Part shown: in pieces, positions 1,045-50,171 of the stretch
How positions within the stretch are numbered: the first letter of the stretch is position 1
How the letters are laid out: the number at the start of each line of letters is the position of its first letter
DNA from: Thermoplasmata archaeon
GTDB lineage: Archaea > Thermoplasmatota > Thermoplasmata > UBA10834
Direction: 5' to 3'
NCBI GenBank assembly: GCA_041548485.1
Contig: JBFESP010000002.1
Coordinates: 10,632 to 74,631 of the forward strand
DNA: 64,000 bases
Notes under the pieces: model-generated
Seen by the model: only the letters and a program-made list of their open reading frames with translations
Told to the model about the DNA's origin: nothing
The model's database searches: none
Position numbers and translations under genes: made by a program

Positions 1045-1536
1045 CTACTCGAATTCCTTCCTGGATACTCCGACAAGGATCAGGCCGATCAACGCGAAGA
1101 GCGATCCCAGCATGAACGGTCCGATCACAAACAATCCCAGCACTCCGCCGACTATGGCAAGGCCCCAGGATTTGCGCAGCAGGCCGAGAACGCCCCCGAG
1201 CACTACCACCAAGCTGAGTATTATCACAATGATACCACAGACGTTCATTATGTCATCAATCACGTCTGTAACGCCCGCGACATCCATGCCGTAGGCGTCC
1301 AGGTCCTCGACATCGATTGCAAGCAAGATGCCGCCCAAAGCTAGACCCATTATCCCCGCTACCATTATCAAGGCTCCACCGATGACAGGGATAACAGTCT
1401 TCTTCTTCGGGGGGGCTGGACCTTCTGCTGGGGCTCTGAAATCATGTCCGCAATGCTGGCACACATTGGCATCCATAGCGATGGATCTGCCACAAGACAC
1501 ACACATTCTGCTACCTTGTTCGTCAGTTGATGCCAT
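1045..1536 (-). CDS. zinc-ribbon (CxxC...CxxC) membrane protein
   Basis: N-terminal MCVSCGRS...CQHCGH zinc ribbon followed by about 100 aa of Gly/Ala/Ile/Leu-rich transmembrane segments. Start chosen at the internal Met, upstream of which the ORF continues to 1566. Confidence 0.5.
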   Translation of the reverse strand: MASTDEQGSRMCVSCGRSIAMDANVCQHCGHDFRAPAEGPAPPKKKTVIPVIGGALIMVAGIMGLALGGILLAIDVEDLDAYGMDVAGVTDVIDDIMNVCGIIVIILSLVVVLGGVLGLLRKSWGLAIVGGVLGLFVIGPFMLGSLFALIGLILVGVSRKEFE

Positions 1537-1809
1537 CAACTGGCCTCCTAACCGAACCCCGTGCACTCAGGTCCACATCCCTAGGATTCAGCCACGTGTT
1601 AATCGACTCCGGGGTTTATATCTGTTTGGTTCAATCAAATAGGAACGACCACGGATGAGCTGGCTAGCCTAATCTGGAGGCGGTTACTGACTAGAATCGA
1701 CGCCTTTCCGAGGAGAGGAGTCACTGCGAATCGTCTCAGCGACGCAGGGCGTCCGGCAGACCATTCCCCGGTTGAAACGGAGGGTGATCTCACTAGCTGT
1801 GCGTGGGAG

Positions 1810-3269: not shown

Positions 3270-3998
3270 TCAGAGGAGCAGGATCGGCTTGCCCGGCCTC
3301 AGGGGGTACTTCTTACACTTGTAGCAGTACCATTCGTTGTACTGGGCTATGAACTTCAGCTCGGATTTGCAGGTAGGACAGACCTTCTTCCCGGACGTAG
3401 CGCCGCTCTTGGGGGCGTAGGCCTTGCACGCGTCGCAGTAGTGCCGCTTGTACTTCTCGATGTACCGCAGTTTGCCGTTGCACTTCGTACATGAGTTCGT
3501 ATTCTTCGGCGCCCGAGGCTTGGCCTTCGCCTTGTGGAGAGGATACTTCTTGCACGCGTAGCAGTACCATTCGTTGTGCCTCTGGACGAACTTCATCTCG
3601 CCAGAGCAGTCAGGGCAGTTCTTGACCTCCGGCCCCTTCTTTGGCGCTTCGGCCGGCGCCTTGGCAGGTTCGGGTTCCTCGATGGCCACGGGGGCGTACT
3701 TCTTACAGCTGTAGCAGTAGTCCCTCTGATACTTCTCAATCCACTTCAGAGGTTGCCCGCAGTTTGCGCACATACGGACCTCGACCGACTCCTTCGGGAC
3801 CTCGGGCTTCGGCTCCTCCGGGACGCTCGGTTCCTCCTTGGGCTGAGCTTCCTCGACCTCGGGTTCCTCAGCGATCTCCTGTTCGGGTTCAATCTCCTCA
3901 TCGGCGATGTATGAATTGCACTCGTAGCAGTACCACTTCTCCATGTGCTCGAGGAAATTGGGTTCTTCACCACAATTCGGACACTTCGATGCTTCCAT
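3270..3998 (-). CDS. protein of five tandem zinc-ribbon modules (C-x2-C ... W-Y-C-Y-x-C-x-K-Y) joined by acidic or basic linkers
   Basis: The translation shows five repeats of about 27 aa: KCPNCGEEPNFLEHMEKWYCYECNSY, RMCANCGQPLKWIEKYQRDYCYSCKKY, KNCPDCSGEMKFVQRHNEWYCYACKKY, NSCTKCNGKLRYIEKYKRHYCDACKAY, KVCPTCKSELKFIAQYNEWYCYKCKKY. Confidence 0.6.
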   Translation of the reverse strand: MEASKCPNCGEEPNFLEHMEKWYCYECNSYIADEEIEPEQEIAEEPEVEEAQPKEEPSVPEEPKPEVPKESVEVRMCANCGQPLKWIEKYQRDYCYSCKKYAPVAIEEPEPAKAPAEAPKKGPEVKNCPDCSGEMKFVQRHNEWYCYACKKYPLHKAKAKPRAPKNTNSCTKCNGKLRYIEKYKRHYCDACKAYAPKSGATSGKKVCPTCKSELKFIAQYNEWYCYKCKKYPLRPGKPILLL

Positions 3999-4235
3999 CT
4001 TCGTCAGCTCCGGTCTTCGCAGGGTTCGCCGAACGGAGGGATTCCCTCCTGGAGCGCCTCCTGCTCTCCTGTGTGAATCTACGGAGCCCGAGCGTATATG
4101 AACATGTCATCCTAAGAATCAACCATGATAACGGATGCGTTAGGGCGGCCAGCATCCTAGTAGCCTACGTGTAGAGCATGCCAATGAAGGTGAAGGACCG
4201 ATATCGATCAGCGGAATCCCGAAGGAGGGACCGAA

Positions 4236-4724
4236 ATGCAGGTTATCGCCGGGCACGGGAAGCGATTGGCGCGCGACCGAGGAGCAGGGATCGAGGGGCT
4301 GCCGCTGCAGCTGCTGATAATGGTGGTGGTGGCGGGCCTAGGTCTGACAATCATCATGGGTTGGATGAGCTCGATATCGGCACCTAGGTCGATAGGAGAC
4401 ATATTCGTTACGCCAGGAGAGATCATGGTCCGCGACCTGGACGGGGACGGAATCTACATCCGTGAAGGGCTGACCCTTGCTGTGACTGTGACCGACCAGG
4501 ACGGCGACAGGATCGAAGGGGCGACCGTCATACTAGAGGGGGGCAGTATTAGGACGGAAGACGGGAGCCCCGTCAGTGGGGTCACGGACTCGAGGGGGCA
4601 GGTCGTGTTCACAGACCTTGTTGTGGAACACTTCGGGCGGACCCTCTCGACAGTGACGGTCACAGTGGCGAAGGGCGACTACGGCATCGACTCGAGCTTC
4701 GAGATACCGGTGATCCCGAGCTGA
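4236..4724 (+). CDS. small secreted or membrane-anchored protein with a pilin-like (class III signal peptide-like) N-terminus
   Basis: Basic N-terminus, then GAGIEGLPLQLLIMVVVAGLGLTIIMG hydrophobic segment, then a Thr/Val/Asp-rich beta-type domain. First of three tandem paralogues. Confidence 0.5.
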   Translation: MQVIAGHGKRLARDRGAGIEGLPLQLLIMVVVAGLGLTIIMGWMSSISAPRSIGDIFVTPGEIMVRDLDGDGIYIREGLTLAVTVTDQDGDRIEGATVILEGGSIRTEDGSPVSGVTDSRGQVVFTDLVVEHFGRTLSTVTVTVAKGDYGIDSSFEIPVIPS

Positions 4725-4730
4725 TGACAG

Positions 4731-5216
4731 ATGGCTATAGCTGCTGACATGACTGCTCTCGAGGCGCTGCCGCTCAGGCTGTTGATCGTCGCTGTCGTCG
4801 CGGGCCTCTCGGTCGTCCCCGCAGCCGGCGCGTTGCAGACCCTTCAGGACAGGAGTTTCCTTGACAGGTGCGCAATCCAGCTGGAGAGCATCGTCAATAC
4901 CGCCCAGGTGGTGTCCCTTGAGGGCTTCGGCTCTAAGAGAACTATCGACCTCGACTTCCGTTCAGACGGTTCGCTCGGGATGAACCGGCTCGGGATCGGA
5001 GGATGCTGGGCGGACCCGACGTCGTCGAGCGTTGTCCTGGAGCTGTCCTCCGGTCGCAAGCTCATCCGCTCGGCGGATGAGCCGTTCGTATGGTTGGCGA
5101 CAGGGTCCCATGAATGCCTTGAGACTTCGTCGCCCCTCTTCACCCTCTCGTTGGCAGCGTCACAGCTTGATGGAAGCCCGCTGGTGATTTGCGAGGTGGT
5201 TCCGTGGACTTCGTGA
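4731..5216 (+). CDS. small protein with a pilin-like N-terminus, paralogue of the upstream gene
   Basis: TALEALPLRLLIVAVVAGLSVVPAAG N-terminal motif, shared with the 4236 ORF as (I/L)E(G/A)LPL(Q/R)LLI. Stop TGA at 5214-5216. Confidence 0.5.
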   Translation: MAIAADMTALEALPLRLLIVAVVAGLSVVPAAGALQTLQDRSFLDRCAIQLESIVNTAQVVSLEGFGSKRTIDLDFRSDGSLGMNRLGIGGCWADPTSSSVVLELSSGRKLIRSADEPFVWLATGSHECLETSSPLFTLSLAASQLDGSPLVICEVVPWTS

Positions 5217-5677
5217 TGTCGAAGGTCGGGCTGTCGGTCTGCGCGCTGATCACCGCCTCCGTGCTCGGAGCGGTTGTATCGGATTCAGGAGTGGACGAGA
5301 GGAGGCAAGAGCTACGCGTCGTCCTGCAGAGGATGTGCGACCTCATCTCCTCAGCCGCCCTGGCGGGCGGAGACTCAGTCAGGGTGTTCTGCGTACCGGC
5401 ACTGTCGACCGGGGAGCCGATACGGACAACGGTGACCGTCGACGGAGCGATCGTGTCGTCGGGTACGGCCTCGGAGATAGGCCACCCGTGCACGCGGGTA
5501 CACCTCTGGCATTGGGACGGACGCGACCTGAACGACAGCGTCATAGCGGACCTGGACCGATCGCACGTCGAGACGACCGTTCACACGGGGGAGACTCTCG
5601 AGATCTTCGCGATGTCCATGGTGGTGGGTGACATGCACCAGGTGCTCGTCTTCGTCCTGAGCGCGGGGCCGAGCTGA
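5216..5677 (+). CDS. small protein with an N-terminal hydrophobic anchor (MSKVGLSVCALITASVLGAVVS), third member of the tandem set
   Basis: Its ATG overlaps the stop of the preceding gene in a TGATG arrangement at 5214-5218. Hydrophobic N-terminus followed by a Val/Thr-rich domain. Confidence 0.45.
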   Translation: MSKVGLSVCALITASVLGAVVSDSGVDERRQELRVVLQRMCDLISSAALAGGDSVRVFCVPALSTGEPIRTTVTVDGAIVSSGTASEIGHPCTRVHLWHWDGRDLNDSVIADLDRSHVETTVHTGETLEIFAMSMVVGDMHQVLVFVLSAGPS

Positions 5678-5682
5678 AGGCG

Positions 5683-6918
5683 CTAGAACTTCCGCGATAT
5701 ATCCTCCACGGCGTGCGCGAACTCGTCCACCTCTCCGGTCGTGTTGTATATGTACATGGACGCGCGGACGGCGCCATCGATCCGTCGCGATTCGAAGAGG
5801 GTGTGACAACAGTGCATTCCAGCGCGCACCATTATGTTCCTCGAATTGTCAAGTATCATCGCAACATCATGGGGAACCATCCCCTTGATGTTGAAGCTCA
5901 GGATGCCTCCTCTCAGGTTCGGATCTGCAGGCGCAAGTATTCGGATGCCGTCGATCCCCCTCAAGGCCTTCGTCATCCTGCGGTTCAGAGCCACCTCGTG
6001 CTCAGCGACCGCATCCAGGCCGATACGGTTCAGATACCGAATCGCCGCCCCCGCCCCGATTATCCCGCTGTAATTCTGCAGGCCCGCCTCGAACCGCTCC
6101 GGAGGGGGCAGGAGCTCGAAGGAGTTCAGAGTGGCGCCCGTCACTCCATGGCCGCCGTATGCGAGTGGAGTGAGATGACGAGATGATTCGTTCTTGGCGT
6201 ACATGATGCCCAAGCCGGACGGACCTAACATCTTATGAGCCGACACGACGAGATAGTCCACATCGAGGAGCCCCACGTCGATGTGCATGCTGGGGGCAGT
6301 CTGGGCCGCATCGAACAGTACCTTCGCCCCCCGCGAGTGGGCCATCTCCACGACCTCTCGCGCAGGCAGGGTGTACCCGGTGACGTTGGACGTAAGACAC
6401 ACCGCGACCAACCGGGTCCTGTCGCTCAACGCATCCTCGAAGGCCTCGAGGTCAAACGTGCCGTCAGATGAGGACCTCACGACTCTTCGGCGGATGCCGT
6501 ACATCTCCGCCGCGCGGAGCAGAGGTACATGGACGGAGTTATGCTCGTAATCCGTAGTCACAACCTCATCACCCCTCGTCAGCCCGGACCCGAAAACGAC
6601 CGTGTTCAACCCTTCCGTGGCGTTCTTGAGGAAGGCGATCTCCGCGGGGTCGGCGGCACCGAAGAAGTTGGCTGCCTCCGCCCTGACGTCGTCGCACTTC
6701 AACGACACCTCGGTCGCCAGCCTGTGGGAGCTCCTGCCAGCACATGCGGGTGTTGACTCGTAGTATTCTCTCACCGCGTCGATCACGCATCTCGGTCGCA
6801 TCGTCTGGCACGCGTTATCGAAGTATATCGGCGGCTCCGTGCCCCCTTCCCCCGACAAGAGGGGGAAGTCTCTCCTTACCTCAGAAGCGTCCATGGCCGG
6901 GACGGCGATGCTCGTCAC
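5683..6918 (-). CDS. sufS: class II (SufS/CsdA-type) cysteine desulfurase
   Basis: PLP fold-type I aminotransferase class V. SAHKMLGPSG lysine motif and C-terminal RAGMHCCHTLF (the RAGHHCA-type active-site Cys loop of group II desulfurases). Confidence 0.8.
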   Translation of the reverse strand: MTSIAVPAMDASEVRRDFPLLSGEGGTEPPIYFDNACQTMRPRCVIDAVREYYESTPACAGRSSHRLATEVSLKCDDVRAEAANFFGAADPAEIAFLKNATEGLNTVVFGSGLTRGDEVVTTDYEHNSVHVPLLRAAEMYGIRRRVVRSSSDGTFDLEAFEDALSDRTRLVAVCLTSNVTGYTLPAREVVEMAHSRGAKVLFDAAQTAPSMHIDVGLLDVDYLVVSAHKMLGPSGLGIMYAKNESSRHLTPLAYGGHGVTGATLNSFELLPPPERFEAGLQNYSGIIGAGAAIRYLNRIGLDAVAEHEVALNRRMTKALRGIDGIRILAPADPNLRGGILSFNIKGMVPHDVAMILDNSRNIMVRAGMHCCHTLFESRRIDGAVRASMYIYNTTGEVDEFAHAVEDISRKF

Positions 6919-45990: not shown

Positions 45991-46175
45991 TATATTATCT
46001 GCCTATTTGTTGCTTACCGAGCGACGGGCACGATTGGCGGAGCTTAGGAGGTCTGAGAGACCTAGTCGAAGTCTCCCTCCACACGTCGGAAGCCGTGCCT
46101 GTGACTATCTCTCCATTGCCGGAAAGCAGTGGGGATGAAAGAATTAAGAACACGCAGAGACAAGTACGACCCGAG

Positions 46176-47195
46176 ATGTCCGAAGGCCCCCTGACCACAT
46201 ATTGGAGCATTCTAGATGGCACTTCAGAACCCAGGTACCTCGAATCGAAGCGCAAGTCTACGGATGTCGACCTAGATGCTGACACAGAAACCCTCTGGAC
46301 AGCCCACGAACGAGCAGTAAGGTACTCCGGGAGGAGTGACGGACCATCACTCCTTGACCTTAAGATCGAGCTGGCGGGCCGAATGCTCAGAGGGTGCTCC
46401 ATGTGTGAGAGGGCATGTGGAGTGAACAGGATTGAAGGAGAGGTCGGTCATTGCGGAGTGTCGGACACACGGATATCAAGCGAGTTCTTGCACATGGGTG
46501 AGGAGCCGGACCTTGTACCATCTCACACGATATTTCTCTCCGGGTGTACTTTCGACTGCGTCTTCTGTCAGAACTGGGACATATCCACGCGACCTGATTC
46601 AGGTGAGGCGGGCGAACCGGTCGCCCTCGCCGGGGTGATTGCGCGAAAGGCCTCTCGGGCCGAGGCGTTGACGGGCGGAATGTGGCGGGCTCCGGCGAGG
46701 AATGTCAACTGGGTGGGTGGCGACCCCACCTCTCACATATGCTTCATCCTCGAAACGCTCAGAGAGTGCAGCGCACGAACCCCTCAGATATGGAATTCCA
46801 ACATGTACCTGACCGCGCCAGCGCTGAGACTACTCGAGGGCGTCATCGACTTGTATCTCACCGATTTCAAGTACGGCAACGACGATTGCGCCAAACGCCT
46901 GTCGAATGTGGAGAATTACACAGACGTCGTCAGGCGGAATCACAAGGCCGCGAGGTCGAATGCGGAGATGGTTGTCAGGCATCTCGTGCTACCCAACCAC
47001 ATCGACTGCTGCACCAAGCCAGTACTCAGCTGGATTGCTGACAACCTGAGCGGAGTCAGGGTGAACGTCATGGCGCAGTACAGGCCCGCACACAGGGCGC
47101 GCGAGCACCAGGATATTTCCCGGCCCCTAAGGTCTTCGGAGTACAGGGAGGCAGCAACCTTCGCTGGTGATTTGGGCTTGGACTTATGTGGCTGA
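46176..47195 (+). CDS. radical SAM protein, PflA-like activating-enzyme family
   Basis: N-terminal CSMCERAC Cys motif followed by GCTFDCVFCQNWDIS (CxxxCxxC radical SAM cluster, CQN-type as in PflA/AmmeMemoRadiSam proteins). Start uncertain (46095-46176). Confidence 0.65.
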   Translation: MSEGPLTTYWSILDGTSEPRYLESKRKSTDVDLDADTETLWTAHERAVRYSGRSDGPSLLDLKIELAGRMLRGCSMCERACGVNRIEGEVGHCGVSDTRISSEFLHMGEEPDLVPSHTIFLSGCTFDCVFCQNWDISTRPDSGEAGEPVALAGVIARKASRAEALTGGMWRAPARNVNWVGGDPTSHICFILETLRECSARTPQIWNSNMYLTAPALRLLEGVIDLYLTDFKYGNDDCAKRLSNVENYTDVVRRNHKAARSNAEMVVRHLVLPNHIDCCTKPVLSWIADNLSGVRVNVMAQYRPAHRAREHQDISRPLRSSEYREAATFAGDLGLDLCG

Positions 47196-47251
47196 CGGCC
47201 GGAGGCCAACACCCTCGAATGGATTAAGTACGGCGACTCTAATCATTCCAC

Positions 47252-48145
47252 GTGGATTCGTCAGAGGCAATAAGTATCATCGCGTTTCTAGGAGCCGCAG
47301 CGACTCTTGGGTGCGCTTCACTCCTGGACATCCGAACAAGACGAGTGCCTAACCGGTTTTGGATCTTCCTTTCCCTGCTCGGGATTATCCTCATCTTGCT
47401 GAGAATCATGGTGGACGAAGAGCGTGCGGAGTTTGCGCTCATCCTCGTGCCAATCGTCGCAGTCCTGTCAGATGTGTACCTTGACACCGAAGGGGACTCG
47501 ATGTTGGCCAGGAGCGCTCCTGTCATGAAGTACGCCACGGCACTAGTCGCCGTGGTAGCTCTGGGGGTTTTGTGGGCAGATGACAGCTACTTCCAGTCCC
47601 TTCTCGCAGTGCCAATAATGATGATGGTGTTTGTGGCATTGTACGCGTTGGACATCATCAAGGGCGGAGCGGACGCGAAGGCGTTGATCGCACTGGCCGT
47701 CGTCTTTCCATTCGTCCCGGCCATAGGCAATCTTCCTCTCGTCGTTCCACTAGATTCGACTGCAAGCGTGCTGTTTCCGTTTGCATTCGCGGTGTTGATA
47801 GATGCGGCAATCCTCGTCCTATTCCTACCACTCGGATTCCTTGTCCGCAACCTGGCATCCCGTGATATCAAGCTCCCCCAGATGCTACTCGGCTACATGA
47901 TCGATTCAGGCACGGATGCGCCTGGGTTCATCTGGCTCATGGAGCGTGTCGAAGACGGGAGGCACAGGATATATACCCGCCCTGCAGGAGATGAGGATGC
48001 ATCAGAGGAGCTGAAGAAGTTGAGGGAACATGGCAGACCGAAGGTGTGGGTCACTCCAAAGATACCATTCATAGTGCCCATATTCGCCGGACTCATCATA
48101 GCGACCATCGCCGGCAACCTCCTGTTCCTACTGTTCGGATTCTGA
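47252..48145 (+). CDS. flaK: A24-family archaeal prepilin/preflagellin peptidase (FlaK-like)
   Basis: SLLDIRTRRVPNRFWIFL (first catalytic Asp motif), IKGGADAKALIALAVVFP (second Asp, GGADxK), C-terminal PKVWVTPKIPFIVPIFAGL. Multiple TM helices. Aligns closely to methanogen FlaK. Confidence 0.8.
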   Translation: MDSSEAISIIAFLGAAATLGCASLLDIRTRRVPNRFWIFLSLLGIILILLRIMVDEERAEFALILVPIVAVLSDVYLDTEGDSMLARSAPVMKYATALVAVVALGVLWADDSYFQSLLAVPIMMMVFVALYALDIIKGGADAKALIALAVVFPFVPAIGNLPLVVPLDSTASVLFPFAFAVLIDAAILVLFLPLGFLVRNLASRDIKLPQMLLGYMIDSGTDAPGFIWLMERVEDGRHRIYTRPAGDEDASEELKKLREHGRPKVWVTPKIPFIVPIFAGLIIATIAGNLLFLLFGF

Positions 48146-48199
48146 AGAATGCCAATCAGAAGATGTCACAGGACTGATCGGCAGATCGTGCGTGCCCCC

Positions 48200-49222
48200 C
48201 TAGACTACAATATTCAGGGAGCGACCACATCCCCTACAGAGATTCCCTTCGAGGGCGTTCCTCGAGATTGAGAGTCCAGTCCTCTCAATCGCAAGGGTTC
48301 CGCACTCTGGGCAGAAGGTGTCATCGCGGTCGCCAGCATGGACATTTCCGAGGTATACGAATTCGAGGCCTGCCTTTCGCGCGACGTCAAAGGCAAGGTC
48401 CAGAGTCTTCATCGGAGTTATCGGAACCTTCGTCAGTCTGTAGTCGGGGTGAAAGGCCGAGAAATGCACGGGGATGTCCGTTCGGAGGCTGTCTCTCACC
48501 CAGTTCACGAAGCCCTCCAACTCTTCGACGGAGTCGTTGTGGCTAGGGATGACAAGATAGGTCAACTCAAGGTGAATCCCCAGTTCGACGGCCCGCTCGC
48601 AAGTCTCGAGCACGGGCGCAAGATGACCTCCGCAGATATCGCGATAGAACTCCTCTCTGAACGACTTGACATCGATATTCATAGCGTCAATGAGGCCCCT
48701 GAGTTCCATCAGTGGCGATTCGCAGATGTATCCGTTGGTAACGTAACTCGTCCTGAGACCAGCCTCGTGGGCGATGCGTGAGGCGTGAGTTGTGAATTCA
48801 TGCCAAATCGTAGGTTCGTTGTAGGTCCATGAAACAGACTTGGCGTCCCAAGACCTCGCGTGACGTACGACGTCCTCCGGAGACAACTTCGTGAGGGAGG
48901 TCTCTGACGGAGAGGCTCTCGAGATGGAATGGTTCTGACAATGACGGCATGTGAGATTACAGCCGACCGAGCCGAAGGATACGGCCGTCGTCCCTGGTAG
49001 GAAATGGAAGAGGGGTTTCTTCTCAATCGGGTCGGGGTGTATCGACGATGCCAAGCCGTATGTCAAAGAGTAGAGCTTGCCATCCCTGTTCTCCCTTACC
49101 CCGCACAGTCCGCGTTTCCCTGTCGCGATCAGGCAGTTGTGAGGACAGAGCAGGCATCTTATCTGCGTCCCATCCGCCTCGTAGAACCTTGCCTCATGAT
49201 TGACGGGATCTGAAGTGCTCAT
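48200..49222 (-). CDS. AmmeMemoRadiSam-system-type radical SAM enzyme (PflA-like)
   Basis: CLLCPHNC...CGVR N-terminal Cys motif and GCNLTCRHCQNHSIS radical SAM cluster, characteristic of the AMMECR1/Memo-associated radical SAM family. Confidence 0.7.
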   Translation of the reverse strand: MSTSDPVNHEARFYEADGTQIRCLLCPHNCLIATGKRGLCGVRENRDGKLYSLTYGLASSIHPDPIEKKPLFHFLPGTTAVSFGSVGCNLTCRHCQNHSISRASPSETSLTKLSPEDVVRHARSWDAKSVSWTYNEPTIWHEFTTHASRIAHEAGLRTSYVTNGYICESPLMELRGLIDAMNIDVKSFREEFYRDICGGHLAPVLETCERAVELGIHLELTYLVIPSHNDSVEELEGFVNWVRDSLRTDIPVHFSAFHPDYRLTKVPITPMKTLDLAFDVARKAGLEFVYLGNVHAGDRDDTFCPECGTLAIERTGLSISRNALEGNLCRGCGRSLNIVV

Positions 49223-50171
49223 ATCCCCGGTTCTCCAGCCTCTCCCTCTTGCCGCTGTCGATAAGAATGTTCTCCTCCCCACTGGTGACCTTCCCGATAA
49301 CTGTCAGTGGACACCCTATGTCGGATGCCAGATTTGCCAGGTCGGTTTCAGCCTCTCGTTTGATTGTGAAGAGCAGCTCATAATCATCGCCGAAGTTGAG
49401 GACTAAGGATTTCTGGCGTTCTAGGTCGTGGAAAGCCAGCTCCACTTCCTTCGCCTTGGAGATGCGAGAATAGTCGATTTCGTAGGTGAGTCCTGAGCTC
49501 CTCGCCAGCTCGAATATCGATGATGATAGTCCATCAGAAATATCCATGCAAGAGGTCACGAACCCGGCGCCTGCGAGAGCTGCGGCCTCCTTAAGCCTTG
49601 GACGGGGGCGCATCAGAGCAGTCTCCGCCTCTCCGAGAGACAGATTGCGCTTCAAGGAGTAGTAACCAGCACCGGCTCTACCGAGTTCGCCGGAGGTAGC
49701 CACGAGGTCTCCAGGTCTAGCGCCTTTTCTCAGCAGGATGTTGTCCCTAGCCACCTCGCCGACCGCAGTACCGCAAAGCGTGAGTGTCTCGTGTTCCTTG
49801 GTGTCGCCCCCGACGATGCTCGTGCCGAAATGCCGCGCGCAGTCGTTCATGCCGTCTACGATCTGCTCAAGATAGTCGATTGGGTGCCCGCGGGTGATCC
49901 CTACCGCTGTGACGACCGCCAGAGGGCGACCGCCCATAGCTGCGATATCGCTGAGATTGACAGCGACAATCGACCAGCCGACATCGTAAGGACCCATACC
50001 CTTCGGGATATGCGTTCTCGGTGCCATCATATCGGTCGTCACCAGGAGGTATCTGTCGCCCATGTCGATTGCGGCACAGTCGTCCCCGATGCCCACCTCG
50101 GCGTCGCTTCTGACGATTCTGTCGATTATCCTAATCGCTCCGCGCTCACCCAGAGTCCCAAGGGTCTTCAC
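49194..50171 (-). CDS. thiL: thiamine-monophosphate kinase (AIR synthase-related fold)
   Basis: GIGDDCAAIDMGDRYLLVTTDMM, GGDTK, PurM-like N and C domains, ThiL-like length. Confidence 0.7.
   Translation of the reverse strand: MKTLGTLGERGAIRIIDRIVRSDAEVGIGDDCAAIDMGDRYLLVTTDMMAPRTHIPKGMGPYDVGWSIVAVNLSDIAAMGGRPLAVVTAVGITRGHPIDYLEQIVDGMNDCARHFGTSIVGGDTKEHETLTLCGTAVGEVARDNILLRKGARPGDLVATSGELGRAGAGYYSLKRNLSLGEAETALMRPRPRLKEAAALAGAGFVTSCMDISDGLSSSIFELARSSGLTYEIDYSRISKAKEVELAFHDLERQKSLVLNFGDDYELLFTIKREAETDLANLASDIGCPLTVIGKVTSGEENILIDSGKRERLENRGYEHFRSRQS

Follow-up and report, generated by a model that had tools for sequence, protein, structure and literature searches.

A conserved trio of small genes in Thermoplasmatota encodes candidate pilin-like proteins, two of which share a prepilin-like N-terminal signature

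What is made by three small genes, each beginning with a hydrophobic segment, that stand in a row in the genome of a Thermoplasmata archaeon? The genes lie in a 64-kb stretch of DNA (the whole of which we refer to as 'the window'), and they fill positions 4236-5677 of it as three open reading frames (ORFs) on the same strand. We term them ORF1, ORF2 and ORF3 or, when speaking of the families to which they belong, 'type A', 'type B' and 'type C'. A preliminary description of the window took them for tandem paralogues with N-termini like those of pilins. We tentatively favour, with a confidence that stops a little short of even, the explanation that the trio is a stoichiometric set of pilin-like subunits processed by a peptidase of the A24 family. 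We do so because ORF1 and ORF2 share a conserved N-terminus in which a small residue is fixed and the leader that precedes it is variable, because of the structure predicted for ORF2, because the genes are coupled, and because the genome encodes an A24 peptidase.

The N-terminal motif common to ORF1 and ORF2, which was noticed at the outset (IEGLPLQLLIMVVVAGL in the one and LEALPLRLLIVAVVAGL in the other), withstands profile–profile comparison. The two families align over 32 N-terminal columns and nowhere else (hhalign, E 4e-6, 87%). In both proteins the signature consists of a basic leader followed by D-x2-3-[GA]-[GAS]-[ILV]-E-[GAS]-L-P-L-x-L-L-I. Across 283 type A and type B sequences the core reads [GA]-[GAS]-[ILV]-E-[GAS]-[LIM]-P-L-[QRK]-L-[LM]-I; the Glu is present in 97% and is followed by G, A or S in 96%. 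Upstream of the core comes a near-fixed Asp or Asn, and ahead of that the basic leader, 6-74 residues long and of variable sequence. The part after the leader is near-invariant, and a G, A or S stands directly before [ILV]-E in 98-100% of sequences. Literature searches with the signature peptide motif gave nothing relevant. ORF3 shows no detectable similarity to ORF1 or ORF2, even when broad alignments are used (hhalign probabilities 0.4-4%). To speak of three paralogues is therefore an overstatement: ORF1 and ORF2 are alike over their 32 N-terminal columns, but their globular parts are unrelated to each other, and ORF3 is unrelated to both. A common N-terminus on differing globular domains, as in ORF1 and ORF2, is also a trait of pilins that belong to one system. 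As far as comparison of the sequences goes, the trio is united by a common architecture, an N-terminal hydrophobic helix and a globular part of ~120 residues, and not by demonstrable common descent.

Each protein has a single hydrophobic segment, at its N-terminus (maximum 19-residue Kyte-Doolittle mean 2.15-2.45), which begins at residue 26 in ORF1, 17 in ORF2 and 8 in ORF3. A basic N-terminal region followed by a hydrophobic stretch, as found in each, is also what one would expect of ordinary Sec-secreted proteins whose hydrophobic N-termini are cleaved signal peptides. We consider this highly improbable. Sec signal peptides are poorly conserved, whereas no part of ORF1 is better conserved than the hydrophobic segment, which scarcely changes among the 255 homologues of the protein and is common to ORF1 and ORF2. 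The helix of ORF2, as modelled, would continue unbroken to residue 64, and the stretch that follows the helix of ORF1, SISAP, has a Pro where signal peptidase I would be blocked. In this respect the N-termini are, as first supposed, unlike ordinary Sec signal peptides.

ORF2 begins with a short leader and the signature (D6-M-T-A-L-E11-A-L-P-L-R-L-L-I), and continues with a 50-residue helix and eight beta strands. Structure prediction, which the preliminary description had proposed as a check, bears on this protein most directly: the AlphaFold2 model (mean predicted local distance difference test score, pLDDT, 85.4) has an unbroken helix at residues 15-64 and then the eight strands of the beta domain, a predicted layout that is that of a type IV pilin or pseudopilin. 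Neither Pfam, DUF7311 included, nor NCBIfam yields a match to ORF2 itself. Among type B representatives, however, 17 of 41 match DUF7311 (PF23993), two of them above the 27-bit cutoff and nearly full length (P0257, 32.2 bits; P0266, 29.4 bits), and the ORF2 family aligns with the DUF7311-matching subset over 157 columns (hhalign, E 1.3e-26, 99.7%). By this full-length profile homology to threshold-passing members, ORF2, although itself below threshold, is classed as a divergent member of DUF7311. Two of its cysteines, Cys47, which lies in the helix, and Cys154, which lies in the last strand, co-vary without exception: 24 of 27 homologues have both and the other 3 have neither. This co-variation suggests a disulfide bond and an extracytoplasmic location.

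ORF1 comprises a variable basic leader, the signature (D14-R-G-A-G-I-E20-G-L-P-L-Q-L-L-I), a transmembrane (TM) helix that extends to about W43, and, at residues 80-145, a putative immunoglobulin-like (Ig-like) beta-sandwich. We infer the Ig-like domain from weak Pfam matches in this region to DUF7382, CarboxypepD_reg and Big_1. The match to DUF7382 (PF24107; 25.7 bits, E 1.1e-5) lies just below the 27.4-bit cutoff; a homologue from Haloterrigena with the same N-terminus as ORF1 scores 37.9 bits, above the cutoff, and DUF7382 is matched by 36 of 148 family representatives. ORF3 is different: M-D-F-V-M-S-K-V leads straight into the TM helix, and next come another helix and a beta-rich domain, in which the stretch HLW-W-G..LN-x-S/T is conserved. 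The type C N-terminus, M-(M/I)-[DE]-[FWY]-x-x-[SAT]-[KR], recurs at 38 close loci and in distant trios. ORF3 has no Pfam or NCBIfam match, and its AlphaFold2 model, built on a nine-sequence alignment, is unusable (pLDDT 47). It contains an N110-x-S sequon, and N-x-S/T is kept in 14 of 16 clade members; conservation of this N-glycosylation site points to an extracytoplasmic location for ORF3. Searches of PDB sequences with the family profiles of ORF1, ORF2 and ORF3 gave no match.

That the three are genuine genes, as first described, is evident from the homologues that exist for all of them and from their base composition: in the three reading frames, GC content is 0.75-0.83 at third codon positions (GC3) and 0.45-0.50 at second positions (GC2). 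Their coordinates, and those of the other features discussed here, are collected in the table. The preliminary description also drew attention to a translational-coupling junction, TGATG, between ORF2 and ORF3. The junction is present and the two genes do overlap, but the ATG within it is probably Met5 of ORF3 rather than its start codon. We favour GTG 5204 as the start because related proteins from 38 loci share the N-terminus M-D-F-[VI]-x-S-K-V that this start provides, and because GAGGTG lies just ahead of it. With this start the overlap amounts to 13 nucleotides (nt), and the arrangement remains overlapping and coupled.

Features of the trio and of related loci (positions refer to the window except where a plasmid is named; aa, amino acids)
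Feature	Position	Strand	Remarks
GGAGG ribosome-binding site	4224..4228	+	7 nt 5' of the ORF1 ATG; direct sequence reading
ORF1 (type A)	4236..4724	+	162 aa
ORF1 copy of signature	4290..4340	+	residues 19-35, IEGLPLQLLIMVVVAGL
ORF2 (type B)	4731..5216	+	161 aa; start 6 nt past ORF1 stop
ORF2 copy of signature	4758..4808	+	residues 10-26, LEALPLRLLIVAVVAGL
GAGGTG ribosome-binding site	5193..5198	+	within the end of ORF2, 5 nt 5' of GTG 5204; direct reading
ORF3 (type C)	5204..5677	+	157 aa from GTG 5204; 153 aa if from ATG 5216
TGATG	5214..5218	+	ORF2 stop 5214-5216 overlaps in-frame ORF3 ATG 5216-5218
FlaK/PibD-type A24 aspartyl peptidase	47252..48145	+	297 aa; 42 kb from the trio
Distant trio, locus L043			255/139/128 aa
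Distant trio, locus L044			161/140/166 aa
Distant trio, locus L046			154/152/162 aa
Distant trio, locus L051			160/147/157 aa
Type A gene, Haloterrigena alkaliphila	plasmid NZ_CP084320.1, 19552-20079 (L052 11956-12483)		175 aa; ...GRDDRA-IEGLPIRLVI...

The genes are conserved together. Database homologues fall into 255 clusters for ORF1 (66-93% identity), 27 for ORF2 (45-90%) and 9 for ORF3 (54-99%). A scan of one genome per species retrieved 38 Thermoplasmata metagenome-assembled genomes, and all 38 have the trio in one order, with unchanged flanks; identity to the window proteins across these loci is ~70% for ORF1 and falls to ~45% for ORF2 and to ~30% for ORF3. The slow evolution of ORF1, on a par with that of housekeeping enzymes, is unlike that of an adhesin. 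On the contigs of more distant members, three consecutive small genes occur again, with changed neighbours (ABC transporter, SHMT and ribosomal genes). Their junctions are mostly 4-nt overlaps, or otherwise a few bases, which suggests co-translation in a fixed ratio. A further 120 metagenome stretches were found with a degenerate DNA pattern for GIEGLPLQLMI, many of them from gut, rumen, termite and fermenter samples. Where enough downstream sequence was available, the second gene was present in 62 of 69 loci and the full trio in 55 of 69.

A search with a merged ORF1 and ORF2 profile returned 240 representatives (50% clustering), of both types, among which all named taxa are Thermoplasmata or Thermoplasmatota. 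One apparent hit, P0175 (E 7.5e-21 with this profile), has 641 amino acids and eight repeats that include PLPLRLLVVCC; it was discarded as a low-complexity false positive. When plasmid sequences were searched by tblastn, a DUF7311-type query gave no match, and ORF1 detected only the solitary Haloterrigena genes: that of Haloterrigena alkaliphila, which neither a type B nor a type C gene adjoins, and near-identical copies on two other Haloterrigena plasmids.

The window does contain, as first reported, a gene for an A24 peptidase at 47.3 kb. The protein matches Arc_PepC_II (1.2e-13) and Peptidase_A24 (1.3e-5) and retains both catalytic Asp motifs, LLDIRTRRVPN and GGADAK; by sequence it is apparently intact, and it is a candidate processing enzyme for the trio. 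Its gene, flanked by radical SAM genes at 46095-47195 (+) and 48200-49282 (-), is unlinked to the trio, and no pilin or machinery gene adjoins it within 46095-49282. The substrates of such enzymes carry class III signals, for which the archaeal rule calls for G, A or S at -1 and a charged residue at -2 (review PMC4371748). Most family members obey this rule, but the place of the cut (↓) at which they do so differs. With the register [GAS]↓[ILV]-E, the residue at -2 is charged in 6 of 91 type A and 27 of 63 type B sequences; [KRD]-[GA]↓[LIV]-E is found in 85 of 137 type B N-termini and [KR]-G↓G-I-E in 47 of 91 type A representatives; E-[GAS]↓L-P accommodates ~96% of sequences, but Pro then falls at +2. 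In the window, ORF1 fits as R-G↓A-G-I-E or as E-G↓L-P, and ORF3 fits only loosely, as K-V-G↓L. The Haloterrigena homologue, D-D-R-A-I-E-G-L-P, resembles the sites RA↓VS and RA↓LS, both of which are listed for PibD, the former in haloarchaeal PilA (PMC4371748). Of the proposal that these are class III signals, then, part stands: there is a small residue, preceded by charges, ahead of the hydrophobic stretch, and the segment is conserved. Part does not, in that the family has no uniform register and ORF3 has no leader. The original caveat that the motif is not the classical one, with Pro three residues after the Glu, was correct.

Several observations weigh against a set of processed pilin-like subunits. 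No single cleavage register obeys the archaeal rule in all members, and ORF2 of the window (A-D-M-T-A-L-E-A-L-P) fits only as E-A↓L-P, with Pro at +2. Neither ORF3 nor other type C proteins have any leader. Comparison with the hidden Markov models of Pilin_N, TadE and similar families, suggested as a check at the outset, lent no support: the three proteins match none of Pilin_N/DUF1628, Class_IIIsignal/DUF361, Arch_flagellin or arch_flag_Nterm (Pfam and NCBIfam, E up to 10), and there is no pilin, class III signal, TadE, Flp or archaellin match among the 148 family representatives (E up to 0.01). Foldseek, given the ORF2 model, retrieved no solved pilin or relative (best E 0.2). ORF1 is as conserved (~70% identity) as the neighbouring NifS, cysteine desulfurase and DHOD, and such housekeeping-like conservation, within a housekeeping synteny block, is unusual for pilins. 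Nor is there an assembly machine nearby, a point on which the preliminary description proved right. We looked for the Walker A/Walker B pattern typical of FlaI/PilB/TadA in the window and in the neighbourhoods of homologous genes (ten looked-up, 38 genome loci and 120 metagenome loci; ~170 loci and roughly 1.5 Mb in all), and found no secretion-ATPase motif and no adjacent assembly ATPase or platform gene in any of them. Eight neighbourhoods annotated with Pfam contain no T2SSE or T2SSF family. Ten ORFs of the window of at least ~400 amino acids were scanned; nine are housekeeping genes, and for the remaining one Pfam gives no match.

Much of this is what would be seen if the proteins were never cut. 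According to this alternative, a close rival that we regard as only a little less probable, the three are uncleaved, type II signal-anchored proteins that form a permanent heterotrimeric surface complex in the Thermoplasmatota envelope, independent of type IV filament machinery; the GIEGLPL signature would be a motif of the membrane interface, or of contact between subunits, rather than a peptidase site. Residence in a housekeeping synteny block that ATPase and platform genes never adjoin, evolution of ORF1 at the pace of a core enzyme with a nearly invariant TM helix, the leaderless ORF3, the lack of a canonical register in the family, and the failure of any pilin profile or solved pilin structure to match all favour such anchors. 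A basic N-terminal tail ahead of a TM helix is expected, too, from the positive-inside rule. Signal anchors leave four things unexplained, however: why, in 98-100% of sequences, the residue just ahead of the hydrophobic stretch is held to G, A or S; why ~30 N-terminal residues are common to two proteins that are otherwise unrelated; why the haloarchaeal and many type B members display textbook R-A↓ or K-G↓ sites; and why ORF2 should have, as its model predicts, a 50-residue helix in the arrangement of a pilin.

A third possibility, that the trio is a periplasmic stator or anchor akin to ArlF and ArlG, in which uncleaved archaellin-like helices bearing beta-sandwich domains tether a rotary or pilus machine to the envelope, seems to us improbable. 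ArlF and ArlG have been described as envelope anchors (PMC12448462). The architecture is similar: these too are small bitopic proteins with an N-terminal, uncleaved archaellin-like hydrophobic helix and a beta-sandwich domain, and the trio proteins are small and beta-rich and, in ORF3 especially, have no obvious leader. Yet no member has an archaellin or FlaF/FlaG-type Pfam match, and the trio shows no sequence-profile match to these proteins and stands outside any arl operon, with no arl genes nearby in any examined neighbourhood. Its abundance in gut, rumen and fermenter metagenome loci may also speak against such a role.

How might a pilin-like set work? The three genes would act as one tightly coupled operon, and each protein would be bitopic, held in the membrane by its N-terminus and exposing its globular domain to the cell exterior. 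Assembly would be in fixed proportion, from an Ig-like subunit of the DUF7382 type (ORF1), a helix-plus-beta subunit of the DUF7311 type (ORF2) and a third subunit, also helix-plus-beta (ORF3). ORF1 and ORF2 would bear a distinctive class III-like signal, composed of a basic leader and D-x2-3-[GA]-[GAS]-[ILV]-E-[GAS]-L-P-L, which the FlaK/PibD-type A24 peptidase of the genome would cut on the cytoplasmic face of the membrane. After cleavage, the conserved hydrophobic helices would pack together. An ATPase and a platform of a type IV filament system, whose genes would lie elsewhere, would build from these subunits a priming or tip complex of the minor-pilin type or else a short pseudopilus. What the analysis establishes are the genes, with their order and conservation, the common motif, the links to families, the fold predicted for ORF2 and the existence of a peptidase gene; cleavage, the formation of a complex and any link to a filament machine are our inferences.

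Sets of this kind have precedents, and these are a further reason for favouring the pilin-like explanation. In Methanococcus maripaludis, a single transcription unit comprises the three small, mutually dissimilar pilin-like genes for EpdA, EpdB and EpdC; the genes for the major pilin, the ATPase and the platform lie elsewhere, and processing falls to a dedicated A24 peptidase (PMC4187195). Our trio likewise consists of three small, dissimilar pilin-like genes apart from machinery. The Epd proteins, however, have canonical [KR]-G↓Q-[IV] sites with Glu at +5, and their genes lie beside eppA (PMC4371748); the signature of the trio differs, there is no DUF361/Class_IIIsignal match, and the peptidase gene is 42 kb away. 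BasABC of the Sulfolobus bindosome, also a set of three small pilin-like proteins, are believed to build a short envelope structure that does not protrude (PMC4187195). They differ from the trio in that basABC share a locus with the ATPase gene basE and the platform gene basF, neither of which has a counterpart near the trio in the loci examined. Pilin genes can also lie far from their machinery: cdiPA and cdiPB are ~500 kb from their operon (PMC12448462).

Dissimilar, co-encoded subunits that have a conserved N-terminal helix in common and form a tip or priming complex are found as well among GspI, GspJ and GspK of the type II secretion system and in TadE/TadF. The TadE N-terminus, roughly G-x4-E-F-x-L-x2-P, is loosely like the G-G-I-E-G-L-P-L of the trio. 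Here again there are differences: the trio has no Pfam match to TadE, T2SSG, N_methyl or Flp_Fap, and Foldseek finds no solved pseudopilin; and while in TadE (G↓x4-E-[FY]) the Glu is at +5, in the trio it comes at +2 or +3 after the nearest conserved Gly, and Pro follows three residues later. DUF7311 and DUF7382 are uncharacterised archaeal families without described function, and literature searches on DUF7382, DUF7311 and DUF7310 produced nothing relevant. Genes for DUF7310 and DUF7311 presumably occur in haloarchaeal pilus loci, a point that plays no part in our argument.

What is known of the family amounts to two DUFs; as a module, the trio appears to be undescribed. Searches for archaeal type IV filaments take the ATPase and platform genes and the canonical class III signal rule as their points of departure, and neither approach would detect a trio that stands alone and has a deviant signature. 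A bolder version of the proposal holds that Thermoplasmatota have a core surface assembly, hitherto undescribed, of which the trio makes up all the subunits and which has a prepilin-like signature of its own, D-x2-3-[GA]-[GAS]-[ILV]-E-G-L-P-L (type A being present also in Halobacteria). Such an assembly could be a new branch of type IV filament subunits with a non-canonical processing site, or a pilin-derived, motorless heterotrimer in archaea that are largely wall-less. We think this unlikely. The trio is kept in every examined genome of one Thermoplasmata clade, and one of its components is found in haloarchaea. If the proteins are indeed prepilin-peptidase substrates, the known substrate motif is widened and a conserved subunit set is added to cell surfaces that have barely been studied; if they are uncleaved, they would constitute a pilin-like core envelope complex. 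Under either reading, DUF7311 and DUF7382 are now placed in a context, and there is a hypothesis about them that can be tested.

The trio's surroundings deserve brief description. It is flanked by a divergent zinc-ribbon gene at 3270-3998 (-) and by a convergent cysteine desulfurase gene at 5683-6918 (-). The latter, a class V aminotransferase, is the most persistent neighbour, found in the window's clade and at 58 of 72 metagenome loci of other lineages, and it sits in a block with LigT, a low-molecular-weight phosphatase and DHOD. We read this linkage as very old synteny with no obvious functional connection. The zinc-ribbon protein (242 amino acids) has five repeats, CPxC ... WYCYxCxxY, separated by acidic, Pro-rich linkers, and gives weak Pfam matches to DZR and DZR_2; in each of the 38 close genomes its gene stands next to the trio in divergent orientation, an arrangement that distant lineages lack. 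Farther upstream, at 1045-1566 (-), a 173-amino-acid protein is encoded, with a zinc ribbon (UPF0547/Zn_ribbon_3) at its N-terminus and several hydrophobic segments after it; its position beside the FKBP gene is conserved in relatives. Finally, in one relative (L003, 16317-16628), a 103-amino-acid Cas12f1-like_TNB fragment, probably the remnant of a transposon-associated nuclease, lies between the gene for the DHOD electron-transfer subunit and a homocitrate synthase-like gene.

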